A DNA stretch of 64,000 nucleotides, from contig CAZWTT010000001.1 of NCBI GenBank assembly GCA_964637315.1, forward strand, positions 149,366-213,365. The letters run 5' to 3'. How positions within the stretch are numbered: the stretch's first letter is position 1; each line of letters opens with the position of its first letter. The translations under genes were made by a program, and so were the position numbers. Positions 898-60,785 of this stretch are shown here, piece after piece. This DNA is from an uncultured Dehalococcoidia bacterium (GTDB taxonomy: Bacteria; Chloroflexota; Dehalococcoidia; Lucifugimonadales; UBA2962). Below the pieces are notes generated by a model, which saw nothing but the letters and a program-made list of their open reading frames with translations, was not told the origin of the DNA and made no database searches.

Positions 898-973
898 GGC
901 GGGGCCGGTTAGGATTCCTGCGCCAGTGCTCCAGAAACTGGGGTTACAAACAAAGCTGGAAATGTACTAACCA

Positions 974-1732
974 ATGGGCGACCTCGACGGAAAAGTAACT
1001 CTCATTACCGGCGCCGGCTCGGGTATCGGCCGTGCGACCGCCCTCGTCTTCGCCCGCGAGGGTGCGACGGTCGCGTGCTCCGACATCGACGCCGAGTCGG
1101 GCGAGGCGACCGTCCGCATGATCGAGGATCTCGGTGGCACTGCATCCTTCGTCCGTGCCGACGTCTCCATCGCCGCAGACGTGGAGGCGATGGTGCGGGC
1201 CGTCGTCAAGCGCTACGGCCGGTTGGACGTGGCCCACAACAACGCTGGCATTGGTGGTCTCGGTAAGCCAATAGACCAGTACACACTGGCCGAGTTTGAG
1301 CGCACCATGGCCGTCAACACCAAGGGCGTTTTCCTCTGCATGAAGTACCAGATTCCGCAGATGATGACGCAGGGTGGGGGAGCGATCGTCAACACCTCTT
1401 CAATGATGGGCCTAGTCGGCCTAGCAGGGATCAGCGCCTACGCCGCCAGCAAGCACGCCGTGGTCGGTCTGACGAGATCGGTGGCATTGGAATACGCCTC
1501 CAAGGGCATACGGATCAACTGCATCTGCCCCGGCATCACCCGCACCCCTATCAACCAGAAGTACTGGGACGAGTTCCCCGAGGCCGAGGAGGAGTGGCTG
1601 ACCATCGAGCCCATCGGGCGCTATGCCGAGCCCGAGGAGATCGCCGAGGTTGTGGCCTGGCTCGCCTCCGACGACGCCTCTTTCGTGCACGGCCACGCCA
1701 TGACGATAGACGGCGGTGCGACGGCCCAGTAG
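974..1732 (+). CDS. SDR 2
   Basis: TGAGSGIG, NNAG, YAASK, IDGG motifs. Confidence 0.95.
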   Translation: MGDLDGKVTLITGAGSGIGRATALVFAREGATVACSDIDAESGEATVRMIEDLGGTASFVRADVSIAADVEAMVRAVVKRYGRLDVAHNNAGIGGLGKPIDQYTLAEFERTMAVNTKGVFLCMKYQIPQMMTQGGGAIVNTSSMMGLVGLAGISAYAASKHAVVGLTRSVALEYASKGIRINCICPGITRTPINQKYWDEFPEAEEEWLTIEPIGRYAEPEEIAEVVAWLASDDASFVHGHAMTIDGGATAQ

Positions 1733-1780
1733 TGCCGCGGCTCACCAGCATGAAAGCCAAACGAGGTTATTAACCGGGAG

Positions 1781-2536
1781 ATGGACGTTTTCGACGAAAA
1801 GATCGCGCTGGTTACCGGCGCCTCGCGGGGCATCGGCCGGGCGGCGGCGCTCCGTTTCGCCCGCGACGGTGCCACGGTGGTGTGCTCCGACGTCGCCGAT
1901 GAGGGCGGTTACGAGACCGTCGAGATGATCGCCGGTATGGGTGGCACGGCGTCCTACGTCCATGCCGACGTCTCCTCAGAATCCGATGTGGAAGGGCTCA
2001 TCGCTGCCGCTTTGAGGTTTTACGGCAAGCTCGACATCGCATTCAACAACGCCGGTATCGGGCTATTCGGCAAAGCCATAGACGACCACACAGAGGCCGA
2101 CTACGACCGGGTGATGTCGATCAACAGCACGGGCGTCTTCCTCTGCATGAAGTACGAGATCCCGGCCATGCTTGAGGGCGGCGGCTGCATCGTCAACACT
2201 GCTTCACAGGCCGGCCTCGTCGGTAACGCCGGCCTGTCAGTCTATTCGGCCAGCAAGCACGCGGTCGTGGGCATGACTAAGGCCGCGGCCCTCGAATACG
2301 CGCGCAAGGGGATAAGAGTCAACTGCGTCGCCCCTGGCATGATCGACACCGAGATCAACACACCCTTCTGGGAGGCCCACCCGGGGACGTACGAGGAATG
2401 GAAGTCGAAACCCCCGATGGGTCGATACGGCACCGCCGGGGAGGTCGCCGAGGCCGTCGCCTGGCTCTGCACTGACGCCGCCGCGTTCGTGCACGGTCAC
2501 GCCATGTCCGTGGACGCCGGCATGGGAGCGATGTAG
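1781..2536 (+). CDS. SDR 3
   Basis: TGASRGIG, NNAG, YSASK motifs. Confidence 0.95.
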   Translation: MDVFDEKIALVTGASRGIGRAAALRFARDGATVVCSDVADEGGYETVEMIAGMGGTASYVHADVSSESDVEGLIAAALRFYGKLDIAFNNAGIGLFGKAIDDHTEADYDRVMSINSTGVFLCMKYEIPAMLEGGGCIVNTASQAGLVGNAGLSVYSASKHAVVGMTKAAALEYARKGIRVNCVAPGMIDTEINTPFWEAHPGTYEEWKSKPPMGRYGTAGEVAEAVAWLCTDAAAFVHGHAMSVDAGMGAM

Positions 2537-3300
2537 TGACCGCCTTGCTCGACGGAAAGGTGGCGGTGATCACCGGTGGCACCTATGGCATCGGCCGTGC
2601 CGTGTCCATGCGCGCCGCCGCCGAGGGCGCGAAAGTGGCCATCGGCGCTCGTGGTGAGGAGACCGGCGCCGAGCTGGTGCGAGAAATCCAAACCGCCGGA
2701 GGTGAGGCCATCTTTATCCCCACCGACGTCGCCGAGCCCGACCAGGTCGCGGCTCTGATCGACGGGGCCGTGGCCACTTATGGCCGGCTGGACCTCGCCT
2801 GCAACAATGCCGGCATCGGTGCCGAACCTCTCGTCATCCATGAGGTGACCGAGGAAGACTTTGAGTTGGTCATGGCGGTCAACCTGCGCGGCGCCTTTGT
2901 GTGCGTAAAACTCGAACTGCAACAGATGCTCAAGACCGGTGGCGGCAGCATCGTCAACATGGCGAGCGCCAACGGCCTCATCGGCACCGCGCTCTTCGCC
3001 GCCTATACCGCCAGCAAGCACGGCATGGTCGGTCTGACCAAGTCGGCTGCGCTGGAGTATGCTGACAAGGGCATCCGGGTGAACGCGGTCTGTCCCGGCG
3101 GGGTAGACACCCCGCTATTCGAGCAGACCTACGGGCCCGAGGGCACCGATGCGCGGGAGGCGGCCACGGCCTTCCACCCCATCGGCAGGATCGGGAGACC
3201 GGAGGAGATCGCTTCCGCGGTCGTCTTTCTCTGGTCTGACAGGGCGTCGTACATCACCGGCTCCTGCCTCACCATCGACGGTGGTCTAACGGCCACCTAG
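2536..3300 (+). CDS. SDR 4
   Basis: TGGTYGIG, NNAG, YTASK motifs; GTG start overlaps the SDR3 stop by 1 nt. Confidence 0.95.
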   Translation: MTALLDGKVAVITGGTYGIGRAVSMRAAAEGAKVAIGARGEETGAELVREIQTAGGEAIFIPTDVAEPDQVAALIDGAVATYGRLDLACNNAGIGAEPLVIHEVTEEDFELVMAVNLRGAFVCVKLELQQMLKTGGGSIVNMASANGLIGTALFAAYTASKHGMVGLTKSAALEYADKGIRVNAVCPGGVDTPLFEQTYGPEGTDAREAATAFHPIGRIGRPEEIASAVVFLWSDRASYITGSCLTIDGGLTAT

Positions 3301-40499: not shown

Positions 40500-41477
40500 T
40501 CAGCCGCTCCTGAGTTCTCGTACGGTCGCGAGGAAGGCTGGTAGCACCGCCTTCCAATCGCCCACCACCCCGTACCGGGATTCCTTGAAAATGTTCGCGC
40601 TCTCGTCGCTGTTTATAGAGACGATGTTCTTCGCCCCGGAGCAGCCGGACATGTGCTGGCTGGCGCCGGAGATACCCACCGTTATGTAGATGTCCGGCGT
40701 AATGGTCTTGCCTGTTAGACCCACCTGGGACGCATGGTCGATCCAGCCGGCGTCACAGGCCGCTCGGGACGCACCCACCGCACCGCCGAGGAGAGTCGCC
40801 AGATCGGCAAGATGCTCAAACGGCTCTGGCCCGCCTAGTCCCCTTCCTCCACTCACGACCGCGGCCGCATCTTCCAGCCTGATGCCGGTGGTGGTCTGGA
40901 CTACCTTTCGTATGGAACGAACCCGAACCCGGCCCGGATCGATCTTGGGCTCCATCTCAACGATCTCGCCGGTGCGCGTGGAGTCCGCGTCGAGGGGCTC
41001 GTATACCTTGCCCCGGACTATCGCCACGCCTGTTTGACCCGGCCCGAACGACATTCGCGCCACCGCGTTGCCGCCGTAGACGGGCCTGGTGGCCGTCAAC
41101 CGGCCGTCGGAATCGAGGCCGACCGCCGTGCAGTCCTGTGCCAGCGCCGCGCCGATGCGGGTCGCCAGTCGAGGGCCGATATCGGCTCCGGCATCCGTCT
41201 TTGACAACAGCACCGCTGAAGGGTCGCTCTCACTGCATACAAGTTCGTAAGCTTGCAGTGTGCCATCCAGACCGGCTCTGGCCAGAGCCTCGCCGCCGAA
41301 CAGGTAGACGCGGTTCGCGCCCAGTGCGATCGTCTGTTCGGCGGTGTCTTGGTCGCCGACCAGGGCCAGATCGACCTCTTCCCCGAGGGTGCGCGCCAGG
41401 GCGATGAGCTCGCCGGTGCCCGGATCTAATTGCGACGAGTCGTCCAGCTCTCCGATGACGAGTACGCGCTCGATCAG
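40500..41477 (-). CDS. etfA: Electron transfer flavoprotein alpha subunit; probable CTG start
   Basis: Frame is open from 41477 (LIERVLVIGE...); VSGGRGLG, GASRAA, QVGLTGK, GISGASQH. Confidence 0.93.
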   Translation of the reverse strand: MIERVLVIGELDDSSQLDPGTGELIALARTLGEEVDLALVGDQDTAEQTIALGANRVYLFGGEALARAGLDGTLQAYELVCSESDPSAVLLSKTDAGADIGPRLATRIGAALAQDCTAVGLDSDGRLTATRPVYGGNAVARMSFGPGQTGVAIVRGKVYEPLDADSTRTGEIVEMEPKIDPGRVRVRSIRKVVQTTTGIRLEDAAAVVSGGRGLGGPEPFEHLADLATLLGGAVGASRAACDAGWIDHASQVGLTGKTITPDIYITVGISGASQHMSGCSGAKNIVSINSDESANIFKESRYGVVGDWKAVLPAFLATVRELRSG

Positions 41478-42280
41478 ATCAAACCGTCCTCTCTCAGCCT
41501 CAGGGCCAGCAGTCGACCGGAGTCTTCTTCACTGTCGCCCTCCACAAATTCACATCTGCGATCTGACTCGGGAACGTATATGTCCTCCAGTGTGAGCCTC
41601 GGTTTCAGTCGGTCGCTTTCCAACCCGAGGTCAGCAGGCGTGAGATAGGTGGGAGTCTTTTTCCCGGCGCCCATGATGCCTCGCAAAGTGGGGTAACGTG
41701 GCTCACCCAGCTCGTTGGTTACGGTGACCACGGCCGGCAGGTCGGCCTCCATCTCCTCGTAGCCGGAGGGAATGACTCGTTCGACTCTTGCCATCCCGTC
41801 CACCACAGTCACCGATTGGGCGACGGTGATGCAGGCCACTTCCAGCATCTCGGCCAAGATGAGGGGGACCTGGGCGTTGTCCCAGTCCGAGGCCTGCCTG
41901 CCGCACAGGACTAAATTGACGTCGCCGATGTCCCTAATGACATGGGACAGTACGTATGCGGTGGCGAACGGGTCCAGGTCCACTAGGGCCGGGTCCTCCA
42001 CCAGCACCAACTCGTCGGCGCCCATGGACAACGGTTTCTTCATGACCGGCACGATACCACCCGCATCAGTGAACCCGTGACCGACGGACAGGACGGTGAT
42101 ATGGGCGTCCGTCGAGTCCTTGATTCGGAGAGCGGCCTCGGTGGCGTTTTCGTCGAAGCCATTGACCACCGGCGGTATGCTCGGAGAGGAGGCCACTCGT
42201 CGTAGTTGCGGGTCGATCTTGAACGCCGAGACCGGGGTCTCGGGGTCGACTACCTGTTTGGCACAAACGACGATCTTCAC
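41474..42280 (-). CDS. etfB: Electron transfer flavoprotein beta subunit
   Basis: MKIVVCAKQVVD, FDENA.EAAL, MGAD, GRQASD, EPRYPTL. Confidence 0.94.
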   Translation of the reverse strand: MKIVVCAKQVVDPETPVSAFKIDPQLRRVASSPSIPPVVNGFDENATEAALRIKDSTDAHITVLSVGHGFTDAGGIVPVMKKPLSMGADELVLVEDPALVDLDPFATAYVLSHVIRDIGDVNLVLCGRQASDWDNAQVPLILAEMLEVACITVAQSVTVVDGMARVERVIPSGYEEMEADLPAVVTVTNELGEPRYPTLRGIMGAGKKTPTYLTPADLGLESDRLKPRLTLEDIYVPESDRRCEFVEGDSEEDSGRLLALRLREDGLI

Positions 42281-42557
42281 GGTGGCGGGCGGAATGTAGC
42301 ACCGCCTTGGGGAGGTGTCAATCCGGTTTGACGGCGCCGACGTGCGCCCTTTTTCAGGACGCCGTAATCTTAAATACGGGACTCGAAATCGTAGAACAAC
42401 CGTCCCACTAATAGACCTTCTCGGACCTTCTCTCATGGGTTCTGCATCGCACTATGGTGTGGTTAACGACCTTTGTGCAAACGGTCACTAACGTACCCCG
42501 GTGAGTCTGGGAAGGGAAATCTGGGCTGAAAATCAACCGAAATCTTTGAAAAAAGTA

Positions 42558-42657: not shown

Positions 42658-43161
42658 ATGGTCATTCAGGCCACTCCTACAACCTTCAGGCCTGGAACGC
42701 CGCCACCGGTGGTGGTCAAGCCACGAGTGGAGCCGGGATCCAAGGTCATTCGACGCCCGGTACTCGTCCCTGGTACCCGGCTTCAGTGCCCCCGGTGCAG
42801 TGACACACTGGTAAAGGGCTTTAATGAGCCCGAGTGCCTAAAGTGTGGCTACGTCGATTACGGGTACGTGGACCGCTCCAAGAACAGTCGCCCGACGAAC
42901 CTCGTGAGCGCGGGCACACGGTACGTCCTGCGATACGTTGGCGACTCCAAGGGCCTGATGGAGACCCTGGCCTACGTACAAGCGGTTCGGCTGCGCAACC
43001 GGGCTGTGTACGAAGTATGCTGCCCATTCTGCTCGACCACCATGGAGCAGTCGTCCCTGTCTGGCAAGCGACGCGACATCCGGGAGGAACGTTTTAAGTG
43101 CGTGCAGGGGCATCGCGTGTCCCTCACCCCCGGCAGGAACAACTCGCTGGGCTGGAAGTAG
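42658..43161 (+). CDS. Hypothetical double zinc-ribbon protein
   Basis: GGAGGA SD; CPRC...CLKC and CPFC...CVQGH. Confidence 0.75.
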   Translation: MVIQATPTTFRPGTPPPVVVKPRVEPGSKVIRRPVLVPGTRLQCPRCSDTLVKGFNEPECLKCGYVDYGYVDRSKNSRPTNLVSAGTRYVLRYVGDSKGLMETLAYVQAVRLRNRAVYEVCCPFCSTTMEQSSLSGKRRDIREERFKCVQGHRVSLTPGRNNSLGWK

Positions 43162-43201
43162 TCGAACGTCTGACATCTGGCGAACACACCAGAGTCATAG
43201 G

Positions 43202-43233
43202 GACCGGGGAGCACCCAGCTCCCCGGTCTTTTT
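43202..43233 (+). terminator. Intrinsic terminator
   Basis: GACCGGGGAGC-ACCCA-GCTCCCCGGTC-TTTTT. Confidence 0.9.
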
Positions 43234-43283
43234 GTTGCCTACTCTCTTTTGTTTTGCTTACGGGGGCCAGTACACTGGCGCCC

Positions 43284-44150
43284 ATGACGTCGGTCGTGGA
43301 GTGGTGCGAACAAGCCGGGGGCGAGCCGGTATTTGTCTGTGATTTCTCCCCACCCAGGGGCGGCGACCCGGCCCTCTTGTCGAGCGCATCGGATATCCCG
43401 GCCGACTTAATATCCGTTGCGTACAATCCAGGTAAGTCACCAAGACTGAACTCGGTGGCCGGCGCCCACTGGATCGCCCAGAACACCGGACGGGACGTGC
43501 TGTTCACCGTCTCGACAAGGGACGTGAATAGGATGGCGATGCAGAGCCTGCTTCTAGGAGCTGACCTGCTGGGCCTGGAAAACGTCGTTGTTGTTAAAGG
43601 CGACCCGTTCCGAGGGAGGGACCTAGAGTGGGCGGTTTCGGTCGACGACTACCGACCGACCGGGCTAATCGCGGCGATAAACGACCTCAACGAGGGCCTC
43701 GATTTCAAGGGGCTTAAGCTGCGCTCCCGGTCCGGCTTCTGCGTGGGAGCTACTATCGACCTGAGATCGCGGTTGGACAGACAGGTCCAACTCACACGTC
43801 GCAAGGTGGAGTCCGGAGCCAGATACTTTCTGCTACAAGCCCTGTTCGAGCCGGAGCGGCTGACCACCTTTACCGAGGCCTACGCCGATGCCTGTGGCGA
43901 GGAGTTGGCGCGACCCATCTTCTGTGGCGTGCAGGTGCTGGTGCACGACGGCATAATTTTTGGCGATCCGCCGAAGTGGGTGTCGGATGAGTTAGCAAAA
44001 GGCCGAGATGGGGTGGAAATAGCCGTTGAGTTGATCGGGCGCTATGCCGACGCTGGATACAAGAACGTGTATCTCGTGCCACCGATCTTCAAAGGAGGCC
44101 GGAGAGACTACGAGTCGGCGGCCCGGGTCTTGCAGGCGTTCGGCCGATGA
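43284..44150 (+). CDS. metF: Methylenetetrahydrofolate reductase family protein
   Basis: DFSPPRG, TRDVNR.A.QS.LLGA..LG..NV..VKGD, KVESGA.YF..Q. Confidence 0.8.
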   Translation: MTSVVEWCEQAGGEPVFVCDFSPPRGGDPALLSSASDIPADLISVAYNPGKSPRLNSVAGAHWIAQNTGRDVLFTVSTRDVNRMAMQSLLLGADLLGLENVVVVKGDPFRGRDLEWAVSVDDYRPTGLIAAINDLNEGLDFKGLKLRSRSGFCVGATIDLRSRLDRQVQLTRRKVESGARYFLLQALFEPERLTTFTEAYADACGEELARPIFCGVQVLVHDGIIFGDPPKWVSDELAKGRDGVEIAVELIGRYADAGYKNVYLVPPIFKGGRRDYESAARVLQAFGR

Positions 44151-52690: not shown

Positions 52691-52721
52691 AAAAGGCCCC
52701 CGGCATTGCTGGGGGCCTTTT
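52691..52721. terminator. Bidirectional intrinsic terminator
   Basis: AAAAGGCCCCCGGC-ATT-GCTGGGGGCCTTTT. Confidence 0.88.
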
Positions 52722-52858: not shown

Positions 52859-53737
52859 TTAGCTTTCGACGAGCTTGAGGCTGGAGTCTAGGTCGTTCCA
52901 GGGGATCATGGCATCCACCCAGCTTCCCAATCGGTTCAGGTAGACGTTGGCGGCATCGAGGAGATCCTTTAGTTCGGCGGTCGACGCCGCCGACTCGGCC
53001 GAGTCGGCCGCTTGGCTGATCAAGTCGGTTGCGGACGGGAAGCCCCACTTGCCCAGGCGAATCTCGGTACGCCGCAGATAGGCGGCGGCCACTTGGCCGG
53101 CCTGTGTGACGGGCAGCTCGTCGGCTAGCTGGCGAGCGACGTGCAGGTTCTCGGTGCCCCAGAACAGGTCGAAGTTGGAGTAGATGATACATGGGAGGTT
53201 GCCCATGGGCGGTCGCCTGTGGGTGCGCATGGCGGTCACGTCGGTGGGCTCTGTCTCCCAGACGTCCGCCGTCGCGACCCGCAGCGCGTCCGTGGCTGCG
53301 TTGCCGGTACTCGAAGGCTGCTTTTGGGTCTTCTCGGTGTAGGTTGTACCTCCCATGCGGACGGTGGCTGGTAGGGCACCGGCCGCCAATATGCGCTTGC
53401 CGGCGGCGACCGCCTTGGGCAGGTCTTCGGGGACGACCTTGGCGAACAGGTTGATGTAGCCGAAGGGCATGATCTCGCCGTAGAACAGACATAGCGTCTG
53501 GCTGCGCGGATAGTAGCCGATGTCCCCCGGCTCGACCGAAGGCACCTGGTTCTCGCCCGGAGGGGTGTAGAACGGGAGCATTGCGATGGTCTCGTCACCG
53601 GCGAACTTGGCGTTCACGCCGAACGTCGTGGTGGGCATGGCGCGCTCGAAGGCGGCGCAGGTCTCGGGAGCGTCGTCGCTGAGCAGTTCGGCCCGGACCG
53701 TCTCGCCGCCCATCTCCATCTCGAATATCTTTCCCAT
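52859..53737 (-). CDS. DUF3830/cyclophilin-like domain plus helical C-terminal domain; McbB/cucumopine synthase-like
   Basis: AELL.D.AP.TC, ENQ...PGDI.YY, LFYG, VVPED, VW.TEP, Y.NRL.SW....PW. Confidence 0.65.
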   Translation of the reverse strand: MGKIFEMEMGGETVRAELLSDDAPETCAAFERAMPTTTFGVNAKFAGDETIAMLPFYTPPGENQVPSVEPGDIGYYPRSQTLCLFYGEIMPFGYINLFAKVVPEDLPKAVAAGKRILAAGALPATVRMGGTTYTEKTQKQPSSTGNAATDALRVATADVWETEPTDVTAMRTHRRPPMGNLPCIIYSNFDLFWGTENLHVARQLADELPVTQAGQVAAAYLRRTEIRLGKWGFPSATDLISQAADSAESAASTAELKDLLDAANVYLNRLGSWVDAMIPWNDLDSSLKLVES

Positions 53738-53753
53738 CAGTTAAGCCACTCCT

Positions 53754-55106
53754 CTAATAAACCTTGTTTGAGCCGACGAGGGGTATTCCGCTCATGGCGG
53801 AGGCATCAACCGACAAGGCACGCAGGTCCTCCGGCTCAAGGTCGTGGATGTCGCGCTTGCCGCAGGCGCGGGCTAGGAGCTGAATCTCCAGAGTCAGTGC
53901 ATTGAGGTAGTTGAACACCCTGTCCGCAGCCTCTTCCGGGTCCAGGCGTGCCTCTAGCGCCGGGTCTTGCGTTGTGATTCCCACGGGACACAGGCCAGTG
54001 TGGCAGTGGTGGCAGGCGCCTGCCCGCGTACCCAGAGCAGCATAGTCTTTGGTATAGATGGCCTTGTTGCAGTTGAGGGCGATCAATGCGGCCGTGCCGA
54101 TGGCCACACCCTTGGCTCCCAACGCCAGCGCCTTGGCCATGTCGGCGCCGTTGGTGAGGCCGCCGGAGACGACCAGGTCGACCTCGTCCTCCAAGCCCAG
54201 TTCCTCGAGTGCGCGAACGGCCTCCGCGGTGGCGGGCATGGTGGGGATGCCGGTGTGGTCGAGCTGCAGCTCCGGCGACGCGCCGGTGCCGCCCTCCATG
54301 CCGTCTATGACGATGACGTCCGCGCCCACCTTGGCCGCGAGCTTGACGTCGGCGGTGACCCGTCCCGCTCCGAGTTTGAGGAATATCGGAACACGGCCAT
54401 CGGTAACTTCCCGCAACTCTTCCATCTTGATCATCAGGTCATCGGCGCCCATCCAGTCGGGGTGCCGAACCGGGCTTCGCTGGTCGACGCCGGCTGGCAG
54501 GTCGCGCTGATCGGCTATGGTGTCGGAGACCTTCAGGCCCAGCAGCAGCCCGCCGGTGCCGGGCTTGGCCCCCTGGCCGATGATGATCTCGAGTGCGTTG
54601 GCCGAGCGCAAGTCGTCAGGGCTGAAGCCGTAACGGCTGGGTAGGACTTGATACATGAGGAGCTTGGACGCCTCGCGCTCGGCCGTCAGCATGCCGCCGT
54701 CGCCGGTGACGGTCATGGTGCCGATGCGGGTGGCCGCCGTTCCTAGTGCGACCTTGGCTGTCGCCGACAACGCTCCGTAGCTCATGCCGGCGATGTAGAC
54801 GGGTGTCTCCAGCCTGATCGGCTCGGAAGCGTTGCGCGAACCCAGCACTGTTTCGGTGCTGCACTTCTCCCGGTAGCCTTCGAGTGGCACTCTGCTCATA
54901 CCCGAGGTAATGAACGTCAGGTCGTCGAAGGACGGCAGCTTGCGCAGCGTGCCGAAGCCGCGGATGCGGTAGCGACCCAGCTCTGACTTGGTGTGGATGT
55001 CCTCGATGACCTCGGGGCCGAAAAAGAAGCTCTCTCGCAGGAGCGGTCGGATCTCTTCCGATTCGCCGTTGGTGGGGCCGCCATTATTCGTTGCGCCGTC
55101 GCTCAA
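53754..55106 (-). CDS. glxD: FMN-binding glutamate synthase family protein (N-methylglutamate synthase subunit C-like)
   Basis: LEGYREKC, GMSYGALS, TGDGGM, GQGAKPGTGG, CHHCHTGLCPVGI.TQ; TTGA overlap with glxC. Confidence 0.88.
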   Translation of the reverse strand: MSDGATNNGGPTNGESEEIRPLLRESFFFGPEVIEDIHTKSELGRYRIRGFGTLRKLPSFDDLTFITSGMSRVPLEGYREKCSTETVLGSRNASEPIRLETPVYIAGMSYGALSATAKVALGTAATRIGTMTVTGDGGMLTAEREASKLLMYQVLPSRYGFSPDDLRSANALEIIIGQGAKPGTGGLLLGLKVSDTIADQRDLPAGVDQRSPVRHPDWMGADDLMIKMEELREVTDGRVPIFLKLGAGRVTADVKLAAKVGADVIVIDGMEGGTGASPELQLDHTGIPTMPATAEAVRALEELGLEDEVDLVVSGGLTNGADMAKALALGAKGVAIGTAALIALNCNKAIYTKDYAALGTRAGACHHCHTGLCPVGITTQDPALEARLDPEEAADRVFNYLNALTLEIQLLARACGKRDIHDLEPEDLRALSVDASAMSGIPLVGSNKVY

Positions 55107-55798
55107 AGCGCGGTCCTCCAAATCTTGAAATCGGCTTTGTCAAAGTTGTAGAGACGCTTGTCCGAGACGATCTTCTTGAACTCGGACGCATCCGGCACTC
55201 CGGCGACATGGTAGCGGGCGAGCAGGTCGGTCAACTCCCTCGATTCCTCGGGAGCCATGTCCTCTGTGGTCGCCCCGTTGCCCAGATCACTGACGTTGCC
55301 ACGGACGAACATGCGACTCTCGTATATGGAGTCGGCGAAGGCCTCGCCGGTGTCGCCACAGACGATGAAAACGCCCTTCTGGCTGACGAAGCCCGACATG
55401 TAGTCGACCGTTCCGCCGATCACGATCAACCCGCCCTTTTGCGAGATGCCTGTTCGTGGACCGGTGTTGCCATGGACCACCAGCGTGCCACCTCTGATGG
55501 CCGCGCCCGCGGCCGCGCTTGCGTTGCCATGCACGATGACGCTTCCGGACTGCATGTCCGATGCGACGGACCAGCCAGCGTTGCCGGTGACCTCGATGTC
55601 GGCGAGTTGGAGCATGCCACCGCAGTAGTAACCGACATTGCCTTCCAGCACAACCTTGCCGGGCTGGTTGAGGCCGACCGCTAGGTTGTGACGGGACTCG
55701 GTGTGGGTGACCAGCACCTCGCCGTCGGCGGTGAGGCCGGCCTTGATGGCCGTGTTTACTTCCCGGAGGGTGAGGCCTTTTGCGTCTATCGATGCCAA
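55103..55798 (-). CDS. glxC: GXGXG-motif glutamate synthase subunit (MgsB-like)
   Basis: HNLAVGL, GYYCGGM, GXGXG beta-helix repeats, LYNF. Confidence 0.85.
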   Translation of the reverse strand: MASIDAKGLTLREVNTAIKAGLTADGEVLVTHTESRHNLAVGLNQPGKVVLEGNVGYYCGGMLQLADIEVTGNAGWSVASDMQSGSVIVHGNASAAAGAAIRGGTLVVHGNTGPRTGISQKGGLIVIGGTVDYMSGFVSQKGVFIVCGDTGEAFADSIYESRMFVRGNVSDLGNGATTEDMAPEESRELTDLLARYHVAGVPDASEFKKIVSDKRLYNFDKADFKIWRTAL

Positions 55799-56706
55799 GT
55801 GCGCACCGTCCTTGCCGTGGGTTCGTGGACCCTCGTGTTCGCGGTCATCACCGGCTCCAGTGCCACCTCTTCGGAGGCCATGGCGACGAAGCCGTCGTCC
55901 TCCGCCACGATCAGTGGTTTGGTGGAGAAGCGGTCCTTGGCGAAGCCGATGCCGTCCCTGGTGGCTACGAGATACGTGAAGGTCCCGTCGAGGCCCTCGA
56001 TGGAGTCGGTGAGGGCCTCCTCCAGCGAAACCCCCGCCCTTAGACGGTCGGCGATGAAGACCGCGATCACCTCTGAGTCGTTGGTGGTGAGGAACTCGTA
56101 GCCCCGGCGCTGGAAGGAGCGTCGCAGCTTGTTGTCGTTGGTTAGCTGCCCGTTGTGCACCACGGCGATGTCCGGGAAAGGCCGAGCCCAGAAGGGATGC
56201 GAGTAACAGATATCGACTCTGCTCTCGGTGGCCAGTCGCGTATGCGCGATGCCGTGCGTGCCCCGAAACCCGGCGACGTCGTAGACGGACAGTTCGGCGG
56301 CCGGACCCACGTCCTTGATGATCTCCATGGCGTTGCCGATGCTGAAAAGCTCGACCCCGACCGACTCGACCGCGTGGGTGATGCGGGTCATGTGGTCGAG
56401 GTCATTGATGTCTTCTATGCCACGCAGTTCGACGCGGGCGATGTTACCGGAGTACCGCGCGCTCGCTATCGTGGCGACCTCGCCCACCCGGTCGCGTATC
56501 TCCGCGAGCCTAGCTTCGGAGTCTCCACCTTCGCTCTCCAGGTGGACGCGGAGCGCGAGGTGGCCGGTCGGCAGGTCGCCGTACAGGGCCATGCCGGTGG
56601 AGTCGAGGCCGCGGCTGCCGAGCACGGTGGCCATGTCGGTCAGACGCGTCCCGAGGGGCGTCTCGGAACCGCCGTTTATGTAAAAGAAACCGGCTATGCC
56701 ACACAT
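55786..56706 (-). CDS. glxB: Class II (Ntn) glutamine amidotransferase (MgsA-like)
   Basis: MCGIAG, RGLDSTG, HTRLATES, SHPF, VHNGQLTN, NDSE, LDG.FT. Confidence 0.88.
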   Translation of the reverse strand: MCGIAGFFYINGGSETPLGTRLTDMATVLGSRGLDSTGMALYGDLPTGHLALRVHLESEGGDSEARLAEIRDRVGEVATIASARYSGNIARVELRGIEDINDLDHMTRITHAVESVGVELFSIGNAMEIIKDVGPAAELSVYDVAGFRGTHGIAHTRLATESRVDICYSHPFWARPFPDIAVVHNGQLTNDNKLRRSFQRRGYEFLTTNDSEVIAVFIADRLRAGVSLEEALTDSIEGLDGTFTYLVATRDGIGFAKDRFSTKPLIVAEDDGFVAMASEEVALEPVMTANTRVHEPTARTVRTWHR

Positions 56707-56772
56707 GGTGTTGTCTCGCTGGGAGTGGTTGGGCCCCACGCGGTCGGCAGGGCTTTTTGTGACTAGTAAAGC

Positions 56773-56820
56773 AGTCTATGGTCGCCGGTCGGGGCCAGTC
56801 AATACACGTTTCTGGCCCCG
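56773..56820 (-). promoter_or_regulatory. Promoter of the glxBCD operon with an overlapping inverted repeat
   Basis: Minus strand TTGACT-N18-TAGACT; CGGGGCCAG-N13-CTGGCCCCG spans the -35 box. Confidence 0.6.
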
Positions 56821-56905: not shown

Positions 56906-58141
56906 GTGGCTTTGGCCGGTGCTCTTTCTCGCATAAAGACCTTCGAGTCCCTTCGGCTCCGTGACTTCCGGCTGCTGTTCGCGGCGAGCATGGGCACATC
57001 CGGCGGATACTTTTTCCAGCAGGTCATCATCGGGTGGTTAACCTACGACATCACCCGCTCGCCGTTCCTGACGGCTCTCGCCCTGGGGCTCGACACGCTT
57101 CCCAACCTGATTGGAGGGCCGATGGGAGGCGTGTTGGTCGATAATCTCGATCGCCGGAAATTGTTGATACTGATCCCTGCCTACCAGTGCACGCTGAGCG
57201 TGGCCTTCGGCCTGATTGTATTGCTCGGGTGGCTCCAGACCTGGCACATCTTCACGTTCATCGTTTTGATGGGCTTTTCCTGGGTATTGGTGGAGCCGGC
57301 GCGCATGGCGATCACTCCGGGCATCGTGGGTGAGGCTAGGCTGGTGAACGCCTTCTCGCTGATCCAGGTGGCGTTCAACTCGACCCGTTTGGTGGGGCCG
57401 TTCATCGGCGGCGTCGTACTGGCTGCATTTGGTCCCGGTCCAACCCTGTTCGTGGAAGCGGGGTCGCAGTTCATGGCCGTGGGAATGGCGGTAATGATGC
57501 GGGCCCCAGTCCAGTCGGTGACCAGGGTCACGGTCGGGTCCGCGATGAGGGACCTGAGGGAATCGATCAGGCTGGTAAGGGACACTCCCGTGTTGCAAGG
57601 GTTGATGCTGTTTGCGTTGCTCACCCCGCTGGTGGTGGTGCCCTTCGCCTACGGGCTGATGCCTGTATTGGCGGCGGATATCTTCGAAGTGGGGCCGGCC
57701 CGGTATGGGACGCTCCTATCCCTGATCGGAGTGGGCGCCGTGGCTGGCACCGTGGTGCTGGCCTCGATGGGGGACGTCCCGCACAAGGGACTCGCCATTG
57801 TCGTCTCTCTATTCACCGCCGCCGTCGGCCTAGCCATATTGGCCGCCTCGTCGTCGTTCTCAGTCGCCGTCGTGGCCGCGCTGGTGATCGGCGCCGGCTA
57901 TGCCGGGACGCAGACGCTTGTTACATCTCTCCTCCAGCGATTGGTGGCTCCCGAGTTCCGGGGCCGCATCTCGGGGATCTGGATGATGACCTGGGGAACG
58001 GTTGCCGGGGGCGGGCTGGTGGCCGGCTGGCTGGCCGATGCCTATGGGGCGCCGACCTCCGCGGCGGTGGGCGCAACGATCATCGTCGCGGCCGTGCTGG
58101 TGATCGGGGCGACCTACAAGACGGTCCGGTCGTTGGAGTAA
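56906..58141 (+). CDS. MFS transporter (MFS_3-like)
   Basis: FESLR.RDFR, GGVLVDNLDRRK motif A, about 12 TM, EFRGRI. Confidence 0.92.
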   Translation: MALAGALSRIKTFESLRLRDFRLLFAASMGTSGGYFFQQVIIGWLTYDITRSPFLTALALGLDTLPNLIGGPMGGVLVDNLDRRKLLILIPAYQCTLSVAFGLIVLLGWLQTWHIFTFIVLMGFSWVLVEPARMAITPGIVGEARLVNAFSLIQVAFNSTRLVGPFIGGVVLAAFGPGPTLFVEAGSQFMAVGMAVMMRAPVQSVTRVTVGSAMRDLRESIRLVRDTPVLQGLMLFALLTPLVVVPFAYGLMPVLAADIFEVGPARYGTLLSLIGVGAVAGTVVLASMGDVPHKGLAIVVSLFTAAVGLAILAASSSFSVAVVAALVIGAGYAGTQTLVTSLLQRLVAPEFRGRISGIWMMTWGTVAGGGLVAGWLADAYGAPTSAAVGATIIVAAVLVIGATYKTVRSLE

Positions 58142-58212: not shown

Positions 58213-59553
58213 TTAATACAACTCCAAATACTCGGCAGACTCCCAGTCGGTGATGTGGGCCCTGAAACGGGCAAGCTCGTATTGCCGCATGACGGTGTAG
58301 GCGGTCACGAAGTCGTTGCCCAGTAGGTCTGCGAACGCCGTGTCCGACTCTAGGGCGGCGAGTGATTCCTCCAGGGTGCCGGGCAGTTTTTCGTATTGAG
58401 CATCGTCCTCCACGGGACCGGCGCTCGGGTCCGGGGTCTCGGCGGCGACGCCCTTTCCCAGTCCAAGCAACCCGGTGGCCAGCACCCCGGCGACCGCGAG
58501 ATACGGGTTGGCGAGGCCGGTGCCGAGCCGGTTTTCCAGGTGCGTGTTGTCGTCACGGGAGTTCTTCGCCCGCACGGCCGCGCTGCGGTCCTGTGGCCCC
58601 CAGCTGATGTTGGACGGGGCGAAATGGTGGGGAACGAACCGGCTGTAGCAGTTGATGGTGGGAGCCAGCAGCGCCATGGACGCCCGGGTATGGTCCAGCA
58701 TGCCCTGTATGAACTGGCGTGCCGTGGACGACAAACCATCCGAGTCCTCTAGATCGAGGAAGACGTTGGCGCCGGTGGCCTTGTCGGTGAGACCGATGTG
58801 AATGTGGCAGCCGGATGCCGCATTGTCGGGGAGCGGCTTGGTCATGAAGGTAGCGTTGTAACCCATCTGGTGAGCGATGGTCTTGACGCCGTTCTTGAAA
58901 GTGAAGCCGTGATCGGCCGCTGCAAGCCCCTCAGCCGGCGCAAAATTGATCTCGAACTGGGATGGAGCGTACTCGCAGTTGGCGGTGATGATGTCGATCC
59001 CGGCGCGCGGCATCTCCTCAAGGATCCTGTCGATGACCGGCAGGTAGCGGTTGCGGATGGTGTTGAAGATGTGCAGGCCGCCGAAGTAGGGTTCGGAGTC
59101 GTCCGGTGACAGGACGTAGAACTCGTACTCGAGGCCCACCTTGACCTCGTAGCCCATTGCGTCTGCCTTCGCCAAGAGCTGGCGTAGTAACCAGCGCGGA
59201 CCCACCCGGTGTGGGGTGCCGTCCTCCCATTCGCCCTCGCAGATAAGGCGCGCCGTATTGTCCAACCAGGGAACGACAATGGCGGTGTCTAGGTCGGGCT
59301 TGAGGTACTGGTCGGCGTAGTTGACCTCTTCGTTGTACAGGGTCCCGGGCACGACTGACGACGCGGTGTCGAGCACGACGGTGCCTCCGTACATGTTCAG
59401 GCCCTTTTCGGCGTAGCTCTCGACGTGGTCAAGGGGGACGAGCTTCGATCGGCTCACCCCGTGCATGTCGGGCAACTCGAACTGGACGTGGGTGATGCCC
59501 TGCTCACCCCAACCCCTGACGAGGTCCGCGATGGTCCTGTTGCTTTTCGCCAT
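58213..59553 (-). CDS. Glutamine synthetase family protein (probable gamma-glutamyl-amine ligase)
   Basis: DMHGVSRSK, GLEYEF, EYAPSQFE, ATFMTKP, SGCHIH, ENR, NPYL; AAGGA SD. Confidence 0.88.
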   Translation of the reverse strand: MAKSNRTIADLVRGWGEQGITHVQFELPDMHGVSRSKLVPLDHVESYAEKGLNMYGGTVVLDTASSVVPGTLYNEEVNYADQYLKPDLDTAIVVPWLDNTARLICEGEWEDGTPHRVGPRWLLRQLLAKADAMGYEVKVGLEYEFYVLSPDDSEPYFGGLHIFNTIRNRYLPVIDRILEEMPRAGIDIITANCEYAPSQFEINFAPAEGLAAADHGFTFKNGVKTIAHQMGYNATFMTKPLPDNAASGCHIHIGLTDKATGANVFLDLEDSDGLSSTARQFIQGMLDHTRASMALLAPTINCYSRFVPHHFAPSNISWGPQDRSAAVRAKNSRDDNTHLENRLGTGLANPYLAVAGVLATGLLGLGKGVAAETPDPSAGPVEDDAQYEKLPGTLEESLAALESDTAFADLLGNDFVTAYTVMRQYELARFRAHITDWESAEYLELY

Positions 59554-59585
59554 TGTTTTATCCTTCCTGTTGATGTGTGGCCGCC

Positions 59586-60641
59586 TTAACTGAAGGCCAG
59601 GGCCCGGGCCGGGTTGTGGATGAGTATCTTGTCGATCTGGGCCCCGGTAAATCCCATGCTCCTCATGCGCGGAACGATATTGTTGATGATGTGGGCGTAG
59701 CCCTTGCCACCGTTGCGACGCATGTGCCACTTGCGGCAGATGTCGTGGGCGATGACCACCTGATCCTCAAAGCCCTCTTCTAGGAGAAAGGCGATCCTGT
59801 GCAGCCTCTCGCCGTCGTTGGGCATGTTGATGACGCGGTCCACGAACGGCCCGGTGTCTTCCCAACTGAAGATGTCGTACTCTAGGAAGCACCCGGTCTC
59901 AGCCAGCGACTTGAGGGCGCCGAAGTCTTCGATAGCCGCATCTAGGTGTCCCAGAATGCAGCGGACGGGGTCCGCGCCACCGGCGACCAGCTCGTCGAGG
60001 ATGCCCGCCGGCGAATCATCGTGCGTGCCGGAGTGGATGGTGACGGGTGCTCCGGTCTCGGCCTGGGCCCTGCCGGACGCGCGCAGGATTTTGATTTCGT
60101 TGTCGGTGAGGGGATAGAAATTGCCCACCTCGCCGATGATGCCGCTCTTGATTCCCGTGTCGCCGACGCCCACGGTCACGTCGGTGACGATCTCGTCGGT
60201 CAGTTGGTCTTCAGTGCGCTCGTCCATGTCCGGCGGGTGGGACCAGGTGACGTAGTAGCTCGACCCCATGACCACGTTCAGGCCGGTCGCGCGAGAGATG
60301 CGCGCCAGTGCAAGAGGGTCGCGGCCGATGCCGACGCTGGTGGTGTCGACGAAAGACCCGCCGCCGACGTGCTTGAATTCCAGTACGCCCTCGATTGCCG
60401 CCGTCTCTTCGAACATCCTGCTGCCATCCAAGTGATGGTTGTAGAGGCCGTCGGGCTGAGACGTCATCTCGGCGTAGAAGGGGATGTCCCTGAGGGCACG
60501 CATACTGGCGTACTCGGACTCGCGGAAGTAGCAGGTTGTGTCCAGCAGCATGTGCTCGTGCATCAGCGTGATGCCGAGTTGTCCCGGCTCAATCGGTCCG
60601 AGAACCGTCTGCACCATGCCTGTGGGGCCTTCGTCGGCCAT
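59586..60641 (-). CDS. Phosphotriesterase-related amidohydrolase (Php-like)
   Basis: VQTVLGPI, MHEH, GIGRDP, GIIGEVG, TIH, GHLD, AHD; GAGGAGG SD. Confidence 0.92.
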   Translation of the reverse strand: MADEGPTGMVQTVLGPIEPGQLGITLMHEHMLLDTTCYFRESEYASMRALRDIPFYAEMTSQPDGLYNHHLDGSRMFEETAAIEGVLEFKHVGGGSFVDTTSVGIGRDPLALARISRATGLNVVMGSSYYVTWSHPPDMDERTEDQLTDEIVTDVTVGVGDTGIKSGIIGEVGNFYPLTDNEIKILRASGRAQAETGAPVTIHSGTHDDSPAGILDELVAGGADPVRCILGHLDAAIEDFGALKSLAETGCFLEYDIFSWEDTGPFVDRVINMPNDGERLHRIAFLLEEGFEDQVVIAHDICRKWHMRRNGGKGYAHIINNIVPRMRSMGFTGAQIDKILIHNPARALAFS

Positions 60642-60785
60642 TGTCGCCTCCTCGACTTCGTCCATGCCCTGGCGTCGGAGCGGCGGTGGCACCGCCTCGC
60701 CGGGGTGAGCACGTTGTATCACGGGCGACTTGTAGCGTCAACGGCGCCCCAAGCGGATGACCCAAGTGGGTGGAAGGAGGGGTGG

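Follow-up and report, generated by a model that had tools for sequence, protein, structure and literature searches.

A McbB-fold protein without the catalytic glutamate of Pictet-Spenglerases is encoded beside glxBCD in Dehalococcoidia and in related loci of other phyla

Genes and Features of the Locus

The 64,000-nucleotide stretch of DNA analysed here (the window) carries on its reverse strand three genes of a GlxBCD-type split glutamate synthase, followed by a gene for a two-domain McbB-fold protein (X). The genes glxB (55786..56739, −) and glxC (55103..55798, −) were assigned by domain matches as encoding a class-II (Ntn) glutamine amidotransferase-like subunit and a GXGXG beta-helix subunit, respectively, while glxD (53754..55121, −) encodes the FMN/Glu_synthase-domain subunit, which contains a CxxCxxxxC motif and matches Pfam Glu_synthase with 322 bits. 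The true start of glxB is likely the Met preceding Cys13, and homologues of glxD begin about 11 residues further in than the window ORF. A predicted promoter-like site lies 5' of glxB (56773..56802, −; consensus match only).

The ATG-started ORF of the McbB-fold protein (52859..53737, −) is 292 aa long and is separated by a gap of 16 nt (53738–53753) from the glxD stop codon TAG (53756–53754). Its ribosome-binding site GAGGAG (53749..53754, −) can be read directly, and its first G doubles as the final base of the glxD stop codon. The next gene downstream is BioY, which is convergent, and between the two convergent genes lies a G+C-rich hairpin of 14 bp (52691..52721, strand not given) with an A-run before it and a T-run after it, which by its sequence is likely a bidirectional terminator closing the glxBCD-X operon. 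The convergent BioY gene and this hairpin therefore make the McbB-fold gene the last of a glxB-glxC-glxD-X operon. The length, spacing, Shine-Dalgarno sequence and terminal position given in a preliminary description of this DNA are thus all borne out by direct reading.

Upstream of the operon are found an MFS transporter gene (56906..58141, +), which is divergent from glxB and syntenic in 12 Dehalococcoidia loci, a glutamine synthetase (GS)-like gene (58213..59730, −), a candidate gamma-glutamyl-amide synthetase syntenic with glxBCD-X in 15 of the 21 Dehalococcoidia loci, and a gene for a phosphotriesterase-family hydrolase (59586..60722, −; domain match), syntenic in 11 loci. A 13th match to the MFS transporter, in an Actinomycetota-type locus, is weak (31%). 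That the terminal gene might be a spurious ORF was ruled out by 52 other homologues at E ≤ 0.001 and by its confidently predicted fold.

Homology and Predicted Fold

Our analyses indicate that the protein has the fold of McbB from Marinactinospora thermotolerans (PDB 3X27) over both of its domains. In HMMER, the family profile matches McbB (3x27_A) with an E value of 1.1e-9, aligning profile positions 11–280 to chain residues 33–325, and all five of the colinear blocks proposed earlier recur in this alignment. The AlphaFold2 (AF2) model of the protein (mean pLDDT 91.9, pTM 0.89) matches 3x27 in Foldseek with an E value of 1.8e-15 and TM scores of 0.83/0.77, and superposes on McbB (VIA) with a Z score of 30.4 and an rmsd of 2.7 Å over 287 aligned residues (model residues 1–289), the C-terminal bundle included. 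The model comprises an N-terminal cyclophilin-like barrel (DUF3830; residues 1–130, 53348..53737, −), which also superposes on the KslB barrel (VIA Z 21, rmsd 1.5 Å over 129 residues), a linker of low confidence (residues ~131–146), and a C-terminal helical bundle (residues ~147–289, 52871..53299, −) supported by profile match, model and superposition. The order of barrel and bundle is identical in McbB, but the identity between the two proteins is only 17–18%, and McbB sits in a beta-carboline biosynthetic cluster whereas the window protein is part of a glxBCD operon.

Similar relationships are seen with other proteins of known structure. The barrels of KslB and AsKslB (9NS6, 9NST, 9K0A, 9UWA) superpose on that of the window protein with an rmsd of 1.4–1.6 Å over 121–129 residues (VIA Z ~19–21) and their helical bundle is matched by the family profile (E 2e-4 to 6e-4), although the domain order of KslB, in the available text of its description, is swapped. 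The stand-alone proteins of the DUF3830/TM1367 type (PDB 3KOP, 1ZX8, 2NNZ) have the same cyclophilin-like barrel as the N-terminal domain (3KOP: Z 18.8, 30% identity, 129 residues), but differ from the window family, in which the barrel is invariably accompanied by its cognate helical bundle, as a fusion or as the product of the next gene. A generic peptidyl-prolyl isomerase (PPIase) appears unlikely by fold comparison, in which many cyclophilins align to the barrel at Z ~12–13 and 7–15% identity, well below McbB, KslB and 3KOP. In searches with the single sequence, DUF3830 (PF12903, cyclophilin-like clan) is matched by residues 8–125 with 46.2 bits (cut-off 26), as it also is in the scan of the window genome, and Pfam Cucumopine_C gives 14.6 bits (E 0.039), which is below its cut-off of 27. 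According to precomputed annotation, some family members exceed the Cucumopine_C cut-off. No NCBIfam model for the protein was found, and in the ESM Atlas it matched only clusters of the McbB/DUF3830 type, without a functional lead. The alignments and the structural model thus indicate that this protein shares descent with McbB and KslB from the same two-domain fold.

Loss of the Catalytic Glutamate

Bacterial Pictet-Spenglerases of this type condense and cyclise Trp or His with an aldehyde or a 2-oxo acid, and they are homodimers whose active site lies where the monomers meet. In McbB and KslB, the amine of an amino acid reacts via an iminium with either an aldehyde or 2-oxoglutarate, and in the three solved enzymes (viz. 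McbB, KslB, and AsKslB) the amino and carboxylate groups are bound alike, as described in the available text of both reports (PMC12012969, PMC12547825). The catalytic glutamate of these enzymes (Glu97 in McbB, Glu274 in KslB, and E100 in Fcs1) is characterised as indispensable in the literature, which records as inactive the E274Q variant of KslB and every one of 19 Fcs1 variants substituted at E100. In the alignment on which the correspondence rests, the McbB motif YGPLTE aligns without gaps to YGEIMP and Glu97 (chain residue 118, offset 21) corresponds to Pro91 (codon 53465..53467, −), which is invariant in 32/32 family members, while the nearby position 88 can be E, D, K, H, or P; the alteration of this region suspected at the outset is hence confirmed. 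Glu274 of KslB likewise has no counterpart in the window protein, if the published equivalence of KslB and McbB holds. The loop following YG is shorter in the window family than in distant McbB-like proteins, and of 16 distant fused proteins that have the long loop, about 14 carry a Glu at YG+4 or YG+5.

Because Glu97 aligns to an invariant proline, we do not class the protein as a Pictet-Spenglerase. Of the earlier assignment to a Pictet-Spenglerase-like protein, homology and a common fold over both domains are retained, and membership, for which the defining glutamate is absent, is not. By alignment, the protein falls into a small family of its own in which the McbB/KslB catalytic glutamate has been lost. 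The most conserved stretch of this family, G71–F92, corresponds in the alignment to the Glu97-bearing hairpin of McbB, which implies selection on the same pocket, and its residues D72, Y76, Q80, T81, C83, Y86, P91, and F92 are kept across three phyla. Outside this stretch, K44, E49, E196, R227, and R269 are likewise invariant, as is Y75/Y76 within it.

Linkage to glxBCD

At least one glx gene is present in 63 of the 80 homologous loci from three phyla, which upholds the linkage to glxBCD that had been suggested for the window, with a gene order that differs by phylum (viz. after glxD, before glxB, or two genes away from glxD). The linkage is found in all 21 Dehalococcoidia loci and in 28 of 31 alphaproteobacterial loci, the other three of which have less than 700 nt of downstream DNA each. 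A GS-like gene is present in 27/80 loci, and seven loci have a gene of the imine deaminase family (RidA) in the vicinity. The fetched flanks of 13 of the 27 Actinomycetota-type loci are without a glx gene; in L055, glxD lies about 150 nt past the flank. A genome search gave no GlxD match in G003 (L034), although the McbB-fold gene is present, and a single negligible match (E 1e-4) in G004 (L079); both genomes may be incomplete. These two genomes and the 13 flanks count against a strict tie of the McbB-fold protein to the Glx complex. In a class-wide sample, none of 120 other genomes had the McbB-fold gene.

Split Genes and Microcompartment Loci

Beyond the Dehalococcoidia, barrel and bundle are almost always encoded by separate adjacent genes, one Vicinamibacterales locus being excepted from splitting. 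Alphaproteobacteria and Actinomycetota have a gene for the C-terminal bundle on its own, and the stand-alone N-terminal half and the other half measure about 127 and 159 aa, respectively. Genes for bacterial microcompartment (BMC) shell proteins surround both halves in all 27 Actinomycetota-type loci, 24 of which also contain an aldehyde dehydrogenase (AldDH). In loci of types A and A', both halves lie directly between BMC-H and BMC-P, whereas in type B the helical-bundle subunit carries an encapsulation-peptide-like amphipathic N-terminal helix (8 of 9 loci examined), which resembles that on the neighbouring AldDH and is not evident in the short ORF of L064. The seven A' loci (L029–L033, L035, and L079) contain AldDH, BMC-H, BMC-P, a DeoC/LacD aldolase, an FGGY kinase, and ADH in a flank without a glx gene; in L033, which has nearly no upstream flank, BMC-P alone is visible.

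These Actinomycetota loci resemble the known aldehyde-processing metabolosomes in their BMC-H, BMC-P, and AldDH genes, and some of them also in PduL, acetate kinase, and an encapsulation-peptide-like N-terminus. The window genome (87.75% complete) differs from such metabolosomes in having no match to the shell-gene family PF00936; no aldehyde dehydrogenase was found in the surroundings of the window operon or in the Dehalococcoidia and alphaproteobacterial flanks, and BMC genes are absent from 53 of the 80 loci. Many metabolosome loci have no obvious aldehyde-generating enzyme, according to the available text of a 2021 BMC catalogue (PMC8217296).

Relation to the N-Methylglutamate Pathway

In SAR11, the products of glxBCD-glnT have been proposed, in the available text of that study, to be an N-methylglutamate synthase and a gamma-glutamylmethylamide synthetase (PMC3160333). 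The window locus likewise combines a GS-like gene of the gmaS type with glxB, glxC, and glxD of the mgsABC architecture, the first parts of the N-methylglutamate pathway (gmaS, mgsABC, mgdABCD). In contrast to that pathway, mgdABCD/SoxBDAG is absent from the McbB-fold loci and the McbB-fold gene is found there instead: neither SoxD nor SoxG was detected in the 80 loci, SoxA has one weak match (L053, 1/80) and a similar partial match in L038 that falls below the coverage bar of the SoxA count, and no mgdABCD genes were found within the scanned parts of the window. An amidase-GS-SoxDAGB cluster with its own GS-like gene is located on another contig of the window genome, and the Sox enzyme and the McbB-fold protein therefore coexist there.

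Two of the genomes with Actinomycetota-type loci, G001 and G002, also contain three GS-glxBCD clusters that have Sox genes in their vicinity. All three are without a McbB-fold gene, and one of them (L101) shows the full colinear order GS-glxBCD-SoxDAGB. In a quick GlxD tree, two of these three Sox-linked sequences are far from the rest and one (L101) lies among the actinobacterial McbB-fold-linked GlxD sequences. With this last grouping, the quick tree, which has only three Sox-linked rows, shows no clean separation of a GlxBCD subtype linked to the McbB-fold gene.

Proposed Role of the McbB-Fold Protein

Our analyses establish the McbB fold and the loss of Glu97, the linkage to glx genes, the existence of both split and fused forms, and, for the relatives, a setting of microcompartment and aldehyde dehydrogenase genes; catalysis, the substrate, the reaction direction, and the aldehyde product are what we infer from here on. 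The GlxBCD and microcompartment contexts suggest an amine-breakdown step for which we found no published description. Our tentative reading, to which we give a probability of roughly 40%, is that the McbB-fold protein is a putative cofactor-free enzyme or binding subunit for a glutamate-carbonyl imine or N-substituted glutamate, acting downstream of GlxBCD in place of N-methylglutamate dehydrogenase and probably freeing an aldehyde. The route would be of the gamma-glutamyl/N-alkylglutamate type of amine catabolism, in which the amine would be gamma-glutamylated by the GS-like ligase and then placed via an imine on the 2-oxoglutarate/glutamate skeleton by GlxBCD, a split glutamate synthase of the N-methylglutamate-synthase type. 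The McbB-fold protein would hold the amino-acid end of the resulting glutamate-carbonyl Schiff base or N-substituted glutamate, and the imine may be made, tautomerised, or hydrolysed to yield aldehyde and glutamate. It would thus stand where the canonical pathway has N-methylglutamate dehydrogenase of the SoxBDAG type. In favour of this reading are the McbB fold over both domains, the conserved pocket segment, the linkage to glx and GS-like genes in varying order, the shell and AldDH genes around the Actinomycetota-type halves, the encapsulation-peptide-like helix in type-B loci, and the near absence of Sox genes from the McbB-fold loci, together with the Sox-associated clusters that lack the McbB-fold gene.

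Several observations count against this route. The catalytic glutamate is gone and the alignment points to no candidate base in its place. Imine hydrolysis is usually spontaneous, and an enzyme for that step therefore needs justification. In the A' loci, moreover, the DeoC/LacD aldolase and FGGY kinase could supply an aldehyde instead, so that aldehydes or the compartment, and not GlxBCD, may be what the protein is concerned with. The 13 Actinomycetota-type flanks without a glx gene and the GlxD results for G003 and G004 weigh against the route as well, as do the lack of a shell gene in the window genome and of an aldehyde dehydrogenase near its operon, the coexistence of the Sox enzyme there, and the grouping of one Sox-linked GlxD in the quick tree. 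A bolder form of our reading, which we regard as rather improbable, is that the McbB-fold pair is the putative aldehyde-releasing signature enzyme of the amine route, which would take the GlxBCD ketimine through the reverse of the first half of a Pictet-Spengler reaction (ketimine-aldimine tautomerisation and/or iminium hydrolysis) to aldehyde and glutamate, i.e. a PLP-independent transamination or deamination with glutamate as carrier, enclosed in Actinomycetota in a new type of microcompartment.

The fold is known, the variant is new, and its glxBCD context was not found in print, in keeping with the earlier remark that this context was not known to be described: we found no paper on a McbB-fold gene beside glxBCD, none on DUF3830 in our literature search, and no mention of such a gene in the glxBCD literature. 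Among the matches listed for cucumopine synthase, none concerns glutamate synthase by its title or the start of its abstract. Glutamate synthase, glutamine synthetase, and amidotransferase go unmentioned in the main texts of two BMC catalogues (PMC8217296 and PMC4207490), as does 'cyclophilin' in that of PMC8217296; four supplement files of PMC8217296 contain none of pfam12903, pfam01645, pfam00120, pfam18631, pfam01493, and pfam04126, and the PDF locus diagrams could still show such loci. Clusters of the GlxBCD/GlnT type are found in both marine and soil bacteria, and only for methylamine use is their role settled. A partner conserved at loci that lack the N-methylglutamate dehydrogenase genes provides a testable hypothesis for the processing of other amines. 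If true, our reading would give the McbB/KslB fold its first non-Pictet-Spengler function, and the actinobacterial microcompartment loci a candidate signature enzyme. The carriers in the window lineage are labelled as SAR202-type Dehalococcoidia, in which an amine route would bear on the turnover of marine dissolved organic nitrogen.

Alternatively, the protein could be a non-catalytic partner, i.e. a structural, regulatory, or assembly subunit on GlxBCD or, in Actinomycetota, a recruiter or organiser of microcompartment cargo, with the McbB fold retained for no more than scaffolding or ligand sensing. The replacement of Glu97 by an invariant proline with no other residue standing out as catalytic, the small halves (~127 and ~159 aa) encoded between BMC-H and BMC-P, the encapsulation-peptide-like helix on the C-terminal half in type-B loci, and the variation among BMC loci in their candidate signature enzyme (glxBCD or DeoC) are all consistent with such a role. 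We nevertheless consider it somewhat unlikely: those polar and aromatic residues that are strictly conserved are concentrated in the hairpin corresponding to the McbB active site, and the 53 loci without BMC genes, together with G003, in which GlxD was not detected, and G004, with one negligible match, argue that the protein is not a dedicated subunit of either system.

Retention of catalysis is also assumed by two further explanations. The FMN domain of GlxD-type enzymes takes 2-oxoglutarate as its co-substrate, and cucumopine synthase is said to use it too. Since the protein has the fold of McbB, some family members pass Cucumopine_C, and KslB uses 2-oxoglutarate in the portion of its description available, the protein might be a true Pictet-Spenglerase or related cyclising enzyme with another acid/base residue, which would condense His, Trp, an arylethylamine, or another amine or amino acid with an aldehyde or 2-oxoglutarate to a cyclic opine-like product, or act in reverse in catabolism. 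This is made highly improbable by the invariant proline at the indispensable Glu97/Glu274 position, by a post-YG loop shorter than that of the distant McbB-like proteins (about 14 of the 16 long-loop ones having the Glu), by the lack of tailoring or natural-product genes near the window operon, and by a context of primary catabolism in three phyla. An aldehyde/amino-acid enzyme independent of GlxBCD, for instance one that reversibly traps and releases an aldehyde as an amino-acid adduct, would instead share with glxBCD only a theme (amines to aldehydes), in accord with the seven A' loci that have AldDH/BMC genes in flanks without glx, the RidA gene near seven loci, and the absence of a GlxD match in G003 and of a significant one in G004. 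We judge it clearly unlikely, because glxBCD is the sole constant neighbour in Dehalococcoidia (21/21) and Alphaproteobacteria (28/31), whose flanks lack an aldehyde dehydrogenase, and because the window gene starts only 16 nt past the glxD stop.

Homology to McbB and the catalytic position

Our analyses indicate that the 292 aa protein encoded by the target gene (52859–53737, minus strand, ATG start) is a homolog of the Pictet-Spenglerase McbB. As a single sequence, it exceeds the cut-off of the Pfam family DUF3830 (46.2 bits, cut-off 26) and matches Cucumopine_C weakly, below the cut-off (14.6 bits, cut-off 27); no NCBIfam model matches it. A profile built from 32 homologs and run against PDB sequences matched McbB (3x27_A; E 1.1e-9), with profile positions 11–280 aligned to chain residues 33–325, and this alignment contains all five of the McbB blocks that the preliminary description had listed. 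The AlphaFold2 model of the target, made with the same homolog alignment (pLDDT 91.9, pTM 0.89), shows a beta-barrel (residues 1–130) joined to a helical bundle by a short linker of low confidence, and its top Foldseek match is McbB (E 1.8e-15, TM 0.83/0.77). In VIA-align, the model superposes on McbB over 287 residues covering both domains (Z 30.4, rmsd 2.7 Å), including the C-terminal bundle on which the preliminary description had staked the relationship; since the match spans the bundle, the homology is real. The target barrel alone also superposes on that of KslB (rmsd 1.4–1.6 Å, Z about 19–21); ordinary cyclophilins score lower (Z about 12–13). Barrel and bundle are present in both the target family and KslB, but their order is swapped in KslB; the pairing is obligatory whether the domains are fused, split or swapped.

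In passages of the literature on these enzymes, Glu97 of McbB is the proposed catalytic residue, aligning with the essential Glu274 of KslB (PMC12012969), and is termed the "core catalytic site," all substitutions of the equivalent E100 of Fcs1 being inactive (PMC10372676); a conserved glutamate is given as typical of these enzymes (PMC12547825). In the HMMER alignment, the target motif YGEIMP lies opposite McbB YGPLTE with no gap, which places Glu97 (residue 118 of the chain, given a tag offset of 21) opposite Pro91, a residue invariant in the family (32/32 sequences). The earlier suggestion that the catalytic Glu region is altered in the target is thus, at the level of sequence alignment, correct. 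Residue 88 is variable in the wider family (E, D, K, H or P). Among distant fused relatives from a library of 1.84 billion proteins, 16 have a longer loop after YG, with Glu at YG+4 or YG+5 in about 14 of them; in the target family and a few other subfamilies this loop is shorter and lacks that Glu. The Trp carboxylate of McbB is held by Arg72 and His87, whose chain positions would face Pro66 and Thr81 of the target in the alignment with 3x27_A. The active-site hairpin of McbB is strongly conserved in the target family, with other residues (viz. D72, Y76, Q80, T81, C83, Y86, P91, and F92).

Operon structure

The stop codon of glxD (TAG, 53756–53754, minus strand) precedes the target on the same strand with a spacer of 16 nt, and a GAGGAG ribosome-binding site (53754–53749, minus strand) shares its last base. 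The mutually overlapping upstream genes glxB, glxC, and glxD encode a class-II amidotransferase (GATase_6/7), a GXGXG beta-helix protein and a Glu_synthase/FMN-domain protein (322 bits), respectively, and a promoter-like site lies upstream of glxB. Between the target and the convergent BioY gene is a perfect 14-bp G+C-rich hairpin (52691–52721) with AAAA before and TTTT after it, likely a bidirectional terminator. Given the spacer and ribosome-binding site after glxD, and the hairpin followed by convergent BioY, the target is the final gene of the glxBCD operon, as had been proposed.

Distribution and gene neighborhoods

The target family is small: a library of 1.84 billion proteins yields 635 representatives at E ≤ 1e-3, of which 212 also reach E ≤ 1e-10, and 119 loci were confirmed in 185,579 species genomes; a sample of 120 further genomes from this class contained no copy of the gene. 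The following counts rest on 80 of the 119 loci. In the 21 loci from Dehalococcoidia/Chloroflexota, several of whose carriers are designated SAR202 in sequence records, the protein is fused in all 20 complete ORFs (L017 ends at a contig edge), glxB-glxC-glxD is directly upstream in 21/21, and neighbors include glutamine-synthetase-like (GS-like; 15), PTE hydrolase (11) and MFS transporter (12) genes. In one Dehalococcoidia locus (L018:5921–7852), glxD and the target are separated by an inserted gene for a GmrSD-type restriction endonuclease, and Zn-dependent alcohol dehydrogenase (ADH) and GFO/IDH/MocA oxidoreductase genes are also nearby. The 31 alphaproteobacterial loci encode the two halves as adjacent ORFs separated by a few nt (N, about 127–130 aa; C, about 159 aa), with glxB-glxC-glxD downstream in 28; the other three have less than 700 nt of downstream DNA each. 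Amidase genes are near in 16; at L047 (4599–8131) and 15 more loci, two divergent amidase-signature genes lie upstream of the N/C-glxBCD operon. The 27 Actinomycetota-type loci, including one unclassified MAG (L046), are likewise split, and have bacterial microcompartment (BMC) shell genes in 27/27, aldehyde dehydrogenase (AldDH) genes in 24/27 and at least one glx gene in 14/27; at L055, which is glx-free in the examined flank, glxD lies about 150 nt past the flank edge. The single Vicinamibacterales locus (L034, fused) has none of the glx, GS-like, BMC, AldDH or other listed neighbors. In possibly incomplete assemblies, a GlxD search found no match in its genome (G003) and only one at E 1e-4 in that carrying L079 (G004). 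GlxBCD is the constant company of the target family, and in one phylum the target halves are found inside aldehyde-processing microcompartment loci.

Type A microcompartment loci (Gaiellales/Thermoleophilia) have the order ADH, FGGY kinase, glxB, glxC, glxD, AldDH, BMC-H, N, C, BMC-P; type A′ loci are similar, except that a DeoC/LacD aldolase and a second ADH replace glxBCD and a RidA gene is near. In both, the N/C halves are directly flanked by BMC-H and BMC-P, downstream of AldDH. Type B loci contain glxBCD, a DAO-family flavoprotein, N, C, GS-like or PduL, two BMC-H, AldDH, and BMC-P genes, and in some cases acetate kinase. Examples of the microcompartment loci of all types are L075:7675–9085, L030:7683–9090, L066:8001–13573, and L055:7902–13391. 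In 8 of the 9 type B loci examined (viz. L066:8386–9240, L067:8332–9252, L055:8330–9145, L058:5519–6250, and five more), a conserved amphipathic helix and then a Pro/Ala-rich linker form the N-terminus of the C subunit, which resembles the encapsulation-peptide-like start of the neighboring AldDH; a conserved His/Cys-rich CxxCxxC motif follows in 7/9. The C subunits of L066, L067, and L069 carry an extra domain of about 50 aa, also found ahead of the L075 AldDH. In type B (e.g., L066:5095–5706), a DUF1989 gene and the DAO-family flavoprotein gene separate glxD from the target halves.

Relation to the N-methylglutamate pathway

GlxBCD shares the architecture of mgsABC of the N-methylglutamate pathway, and a passage in PMC3160333 proposes SAR11 glxBCD-glnT to be N-methylglutamate synthase plus gamma-glutamylmethylamide synthetase. 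Three further GS-glxBCD clusters in two genomes (G001 and G002) have Sox genes near and no McbB-fold gene, one of them (L101) in the full colinear order GS-glxBCD-SoxDAGB. Across the 80 target loci, no SoxD or SoxG homolog was found, SoxA-like matches were limited to a weak one (L053) and a similar partial one (L038), and a DAO-family gene was present in seven. In a quick GlxD tree, with three Sox-linked rows from an unfinished search, two Sox-linked GlxD lie far from all others and the remaining one, which belongs to the canonical colinear cluster, is placed with actinobacterial target-linked GlxD; this placement suggests that the target-adjacent GlxBCD is the same kind of enzyme and that the difference lies in the downstream partner.

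In the 1.76-Mb assembly of the genome to which the window belongs (87.75% complete), the target gene is present in a single copy and no BMC shell gene was found. The glxD of the window is the only strong Glu_synthase-domain gene found there, and no canonical gltB was found at 87.75% completeness; hence GlxBCD could be the only glutamate-synthase-like enzyme of the cell and, as the only trio found, may serve several of the at least four full-length GS-like paralogs. Contig 13 carries amidase, GS-like, SoxD, SoxA, SoxG, and SoxB genes on one strand (L099:3129–10959) without glxBCD. The amidases beside this cluster and the alphaproteobacterial N/C-glxBCD operons hint at amines from amide hydrolysis.

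Proposed function

McbB/KslB-fold enzymes are described in PMC12012969 and PMC12547825 as binding an alpha-amino acid and coupling its amine, via an iminium, to either an aldehyde or 2-oxoglutarate. We tentatively propose (probability about 0.4) that the target would bind a glutamate-carbonyl Schiff base, or an N-substituted glutamate, by its glutamate end and would interconvert or hydrolyze it to aldehyde and glutamate, standing where the canonical pathway has a flavin dehydrogenase. The chemistry of GlxBCD, like that of glutamate synthase and N-methylglutamate synthase, passes through 2-iminoglutarate-type intermediates. The earlier reading of the target as a divergent imine-handling enzyme acting on the 2-oxoglutarate or imine intermediate of the Glx complex is plausible. 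What speaks most strongly against a general aldehyde product is that in Dehalococcoidia and Alphaproteobacteria no AldDH gene is found near the operon.

It is rather unlikely that the target is instead a non-catalytic partner or cargo organizer. An aldehyde/amino-acid enzyme independent of GlxBCD would accord with the type A′ loci and with G003 and G004, where no significant GlxD was detected, and these observations weigh most heavily against a strict tie to GlxBCD; we nevertheless consider such an enzyme improbable. On the present evidence the target has a Pictet-Spenglerase fold, yet we do not assign it as a Pictet-Spenglerase, and a true member using another catalytic base is the least credible of these alternatives.

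Full-text literature searches returned nothing on DUF3830, no link of McbB-like or cucumopine-synthase-like genes with glxBCD, and no account of a BMC locus type holding the N/C halves; the main text and text supplements of two BMC catalogs contain no mention of a glutamate-synthase/glutamine-synthetase gene set. The target represents a known fold in a new form that lacks the catalytic Glu, and its context is apparently undescribed; the microcompartment link in its relatives makes its function directly testable.

Other features of the window

The annotated starts of glxD (TTG, 55089–55121 region) and glxB (GTG, 56707–56739 region) are probably too far 5′; GlxD homologs start about 11 residues downstream of the listed TTG, and the true start of GlxB should be the Met preceding the putative Ntn nucleophile Cys13. 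The window also contains four short-chain dehydrogenase genes in tandem (130–3300), ETF alpha and beta genes (40500–42436) and an MTHFR-like gene (43098–44150).
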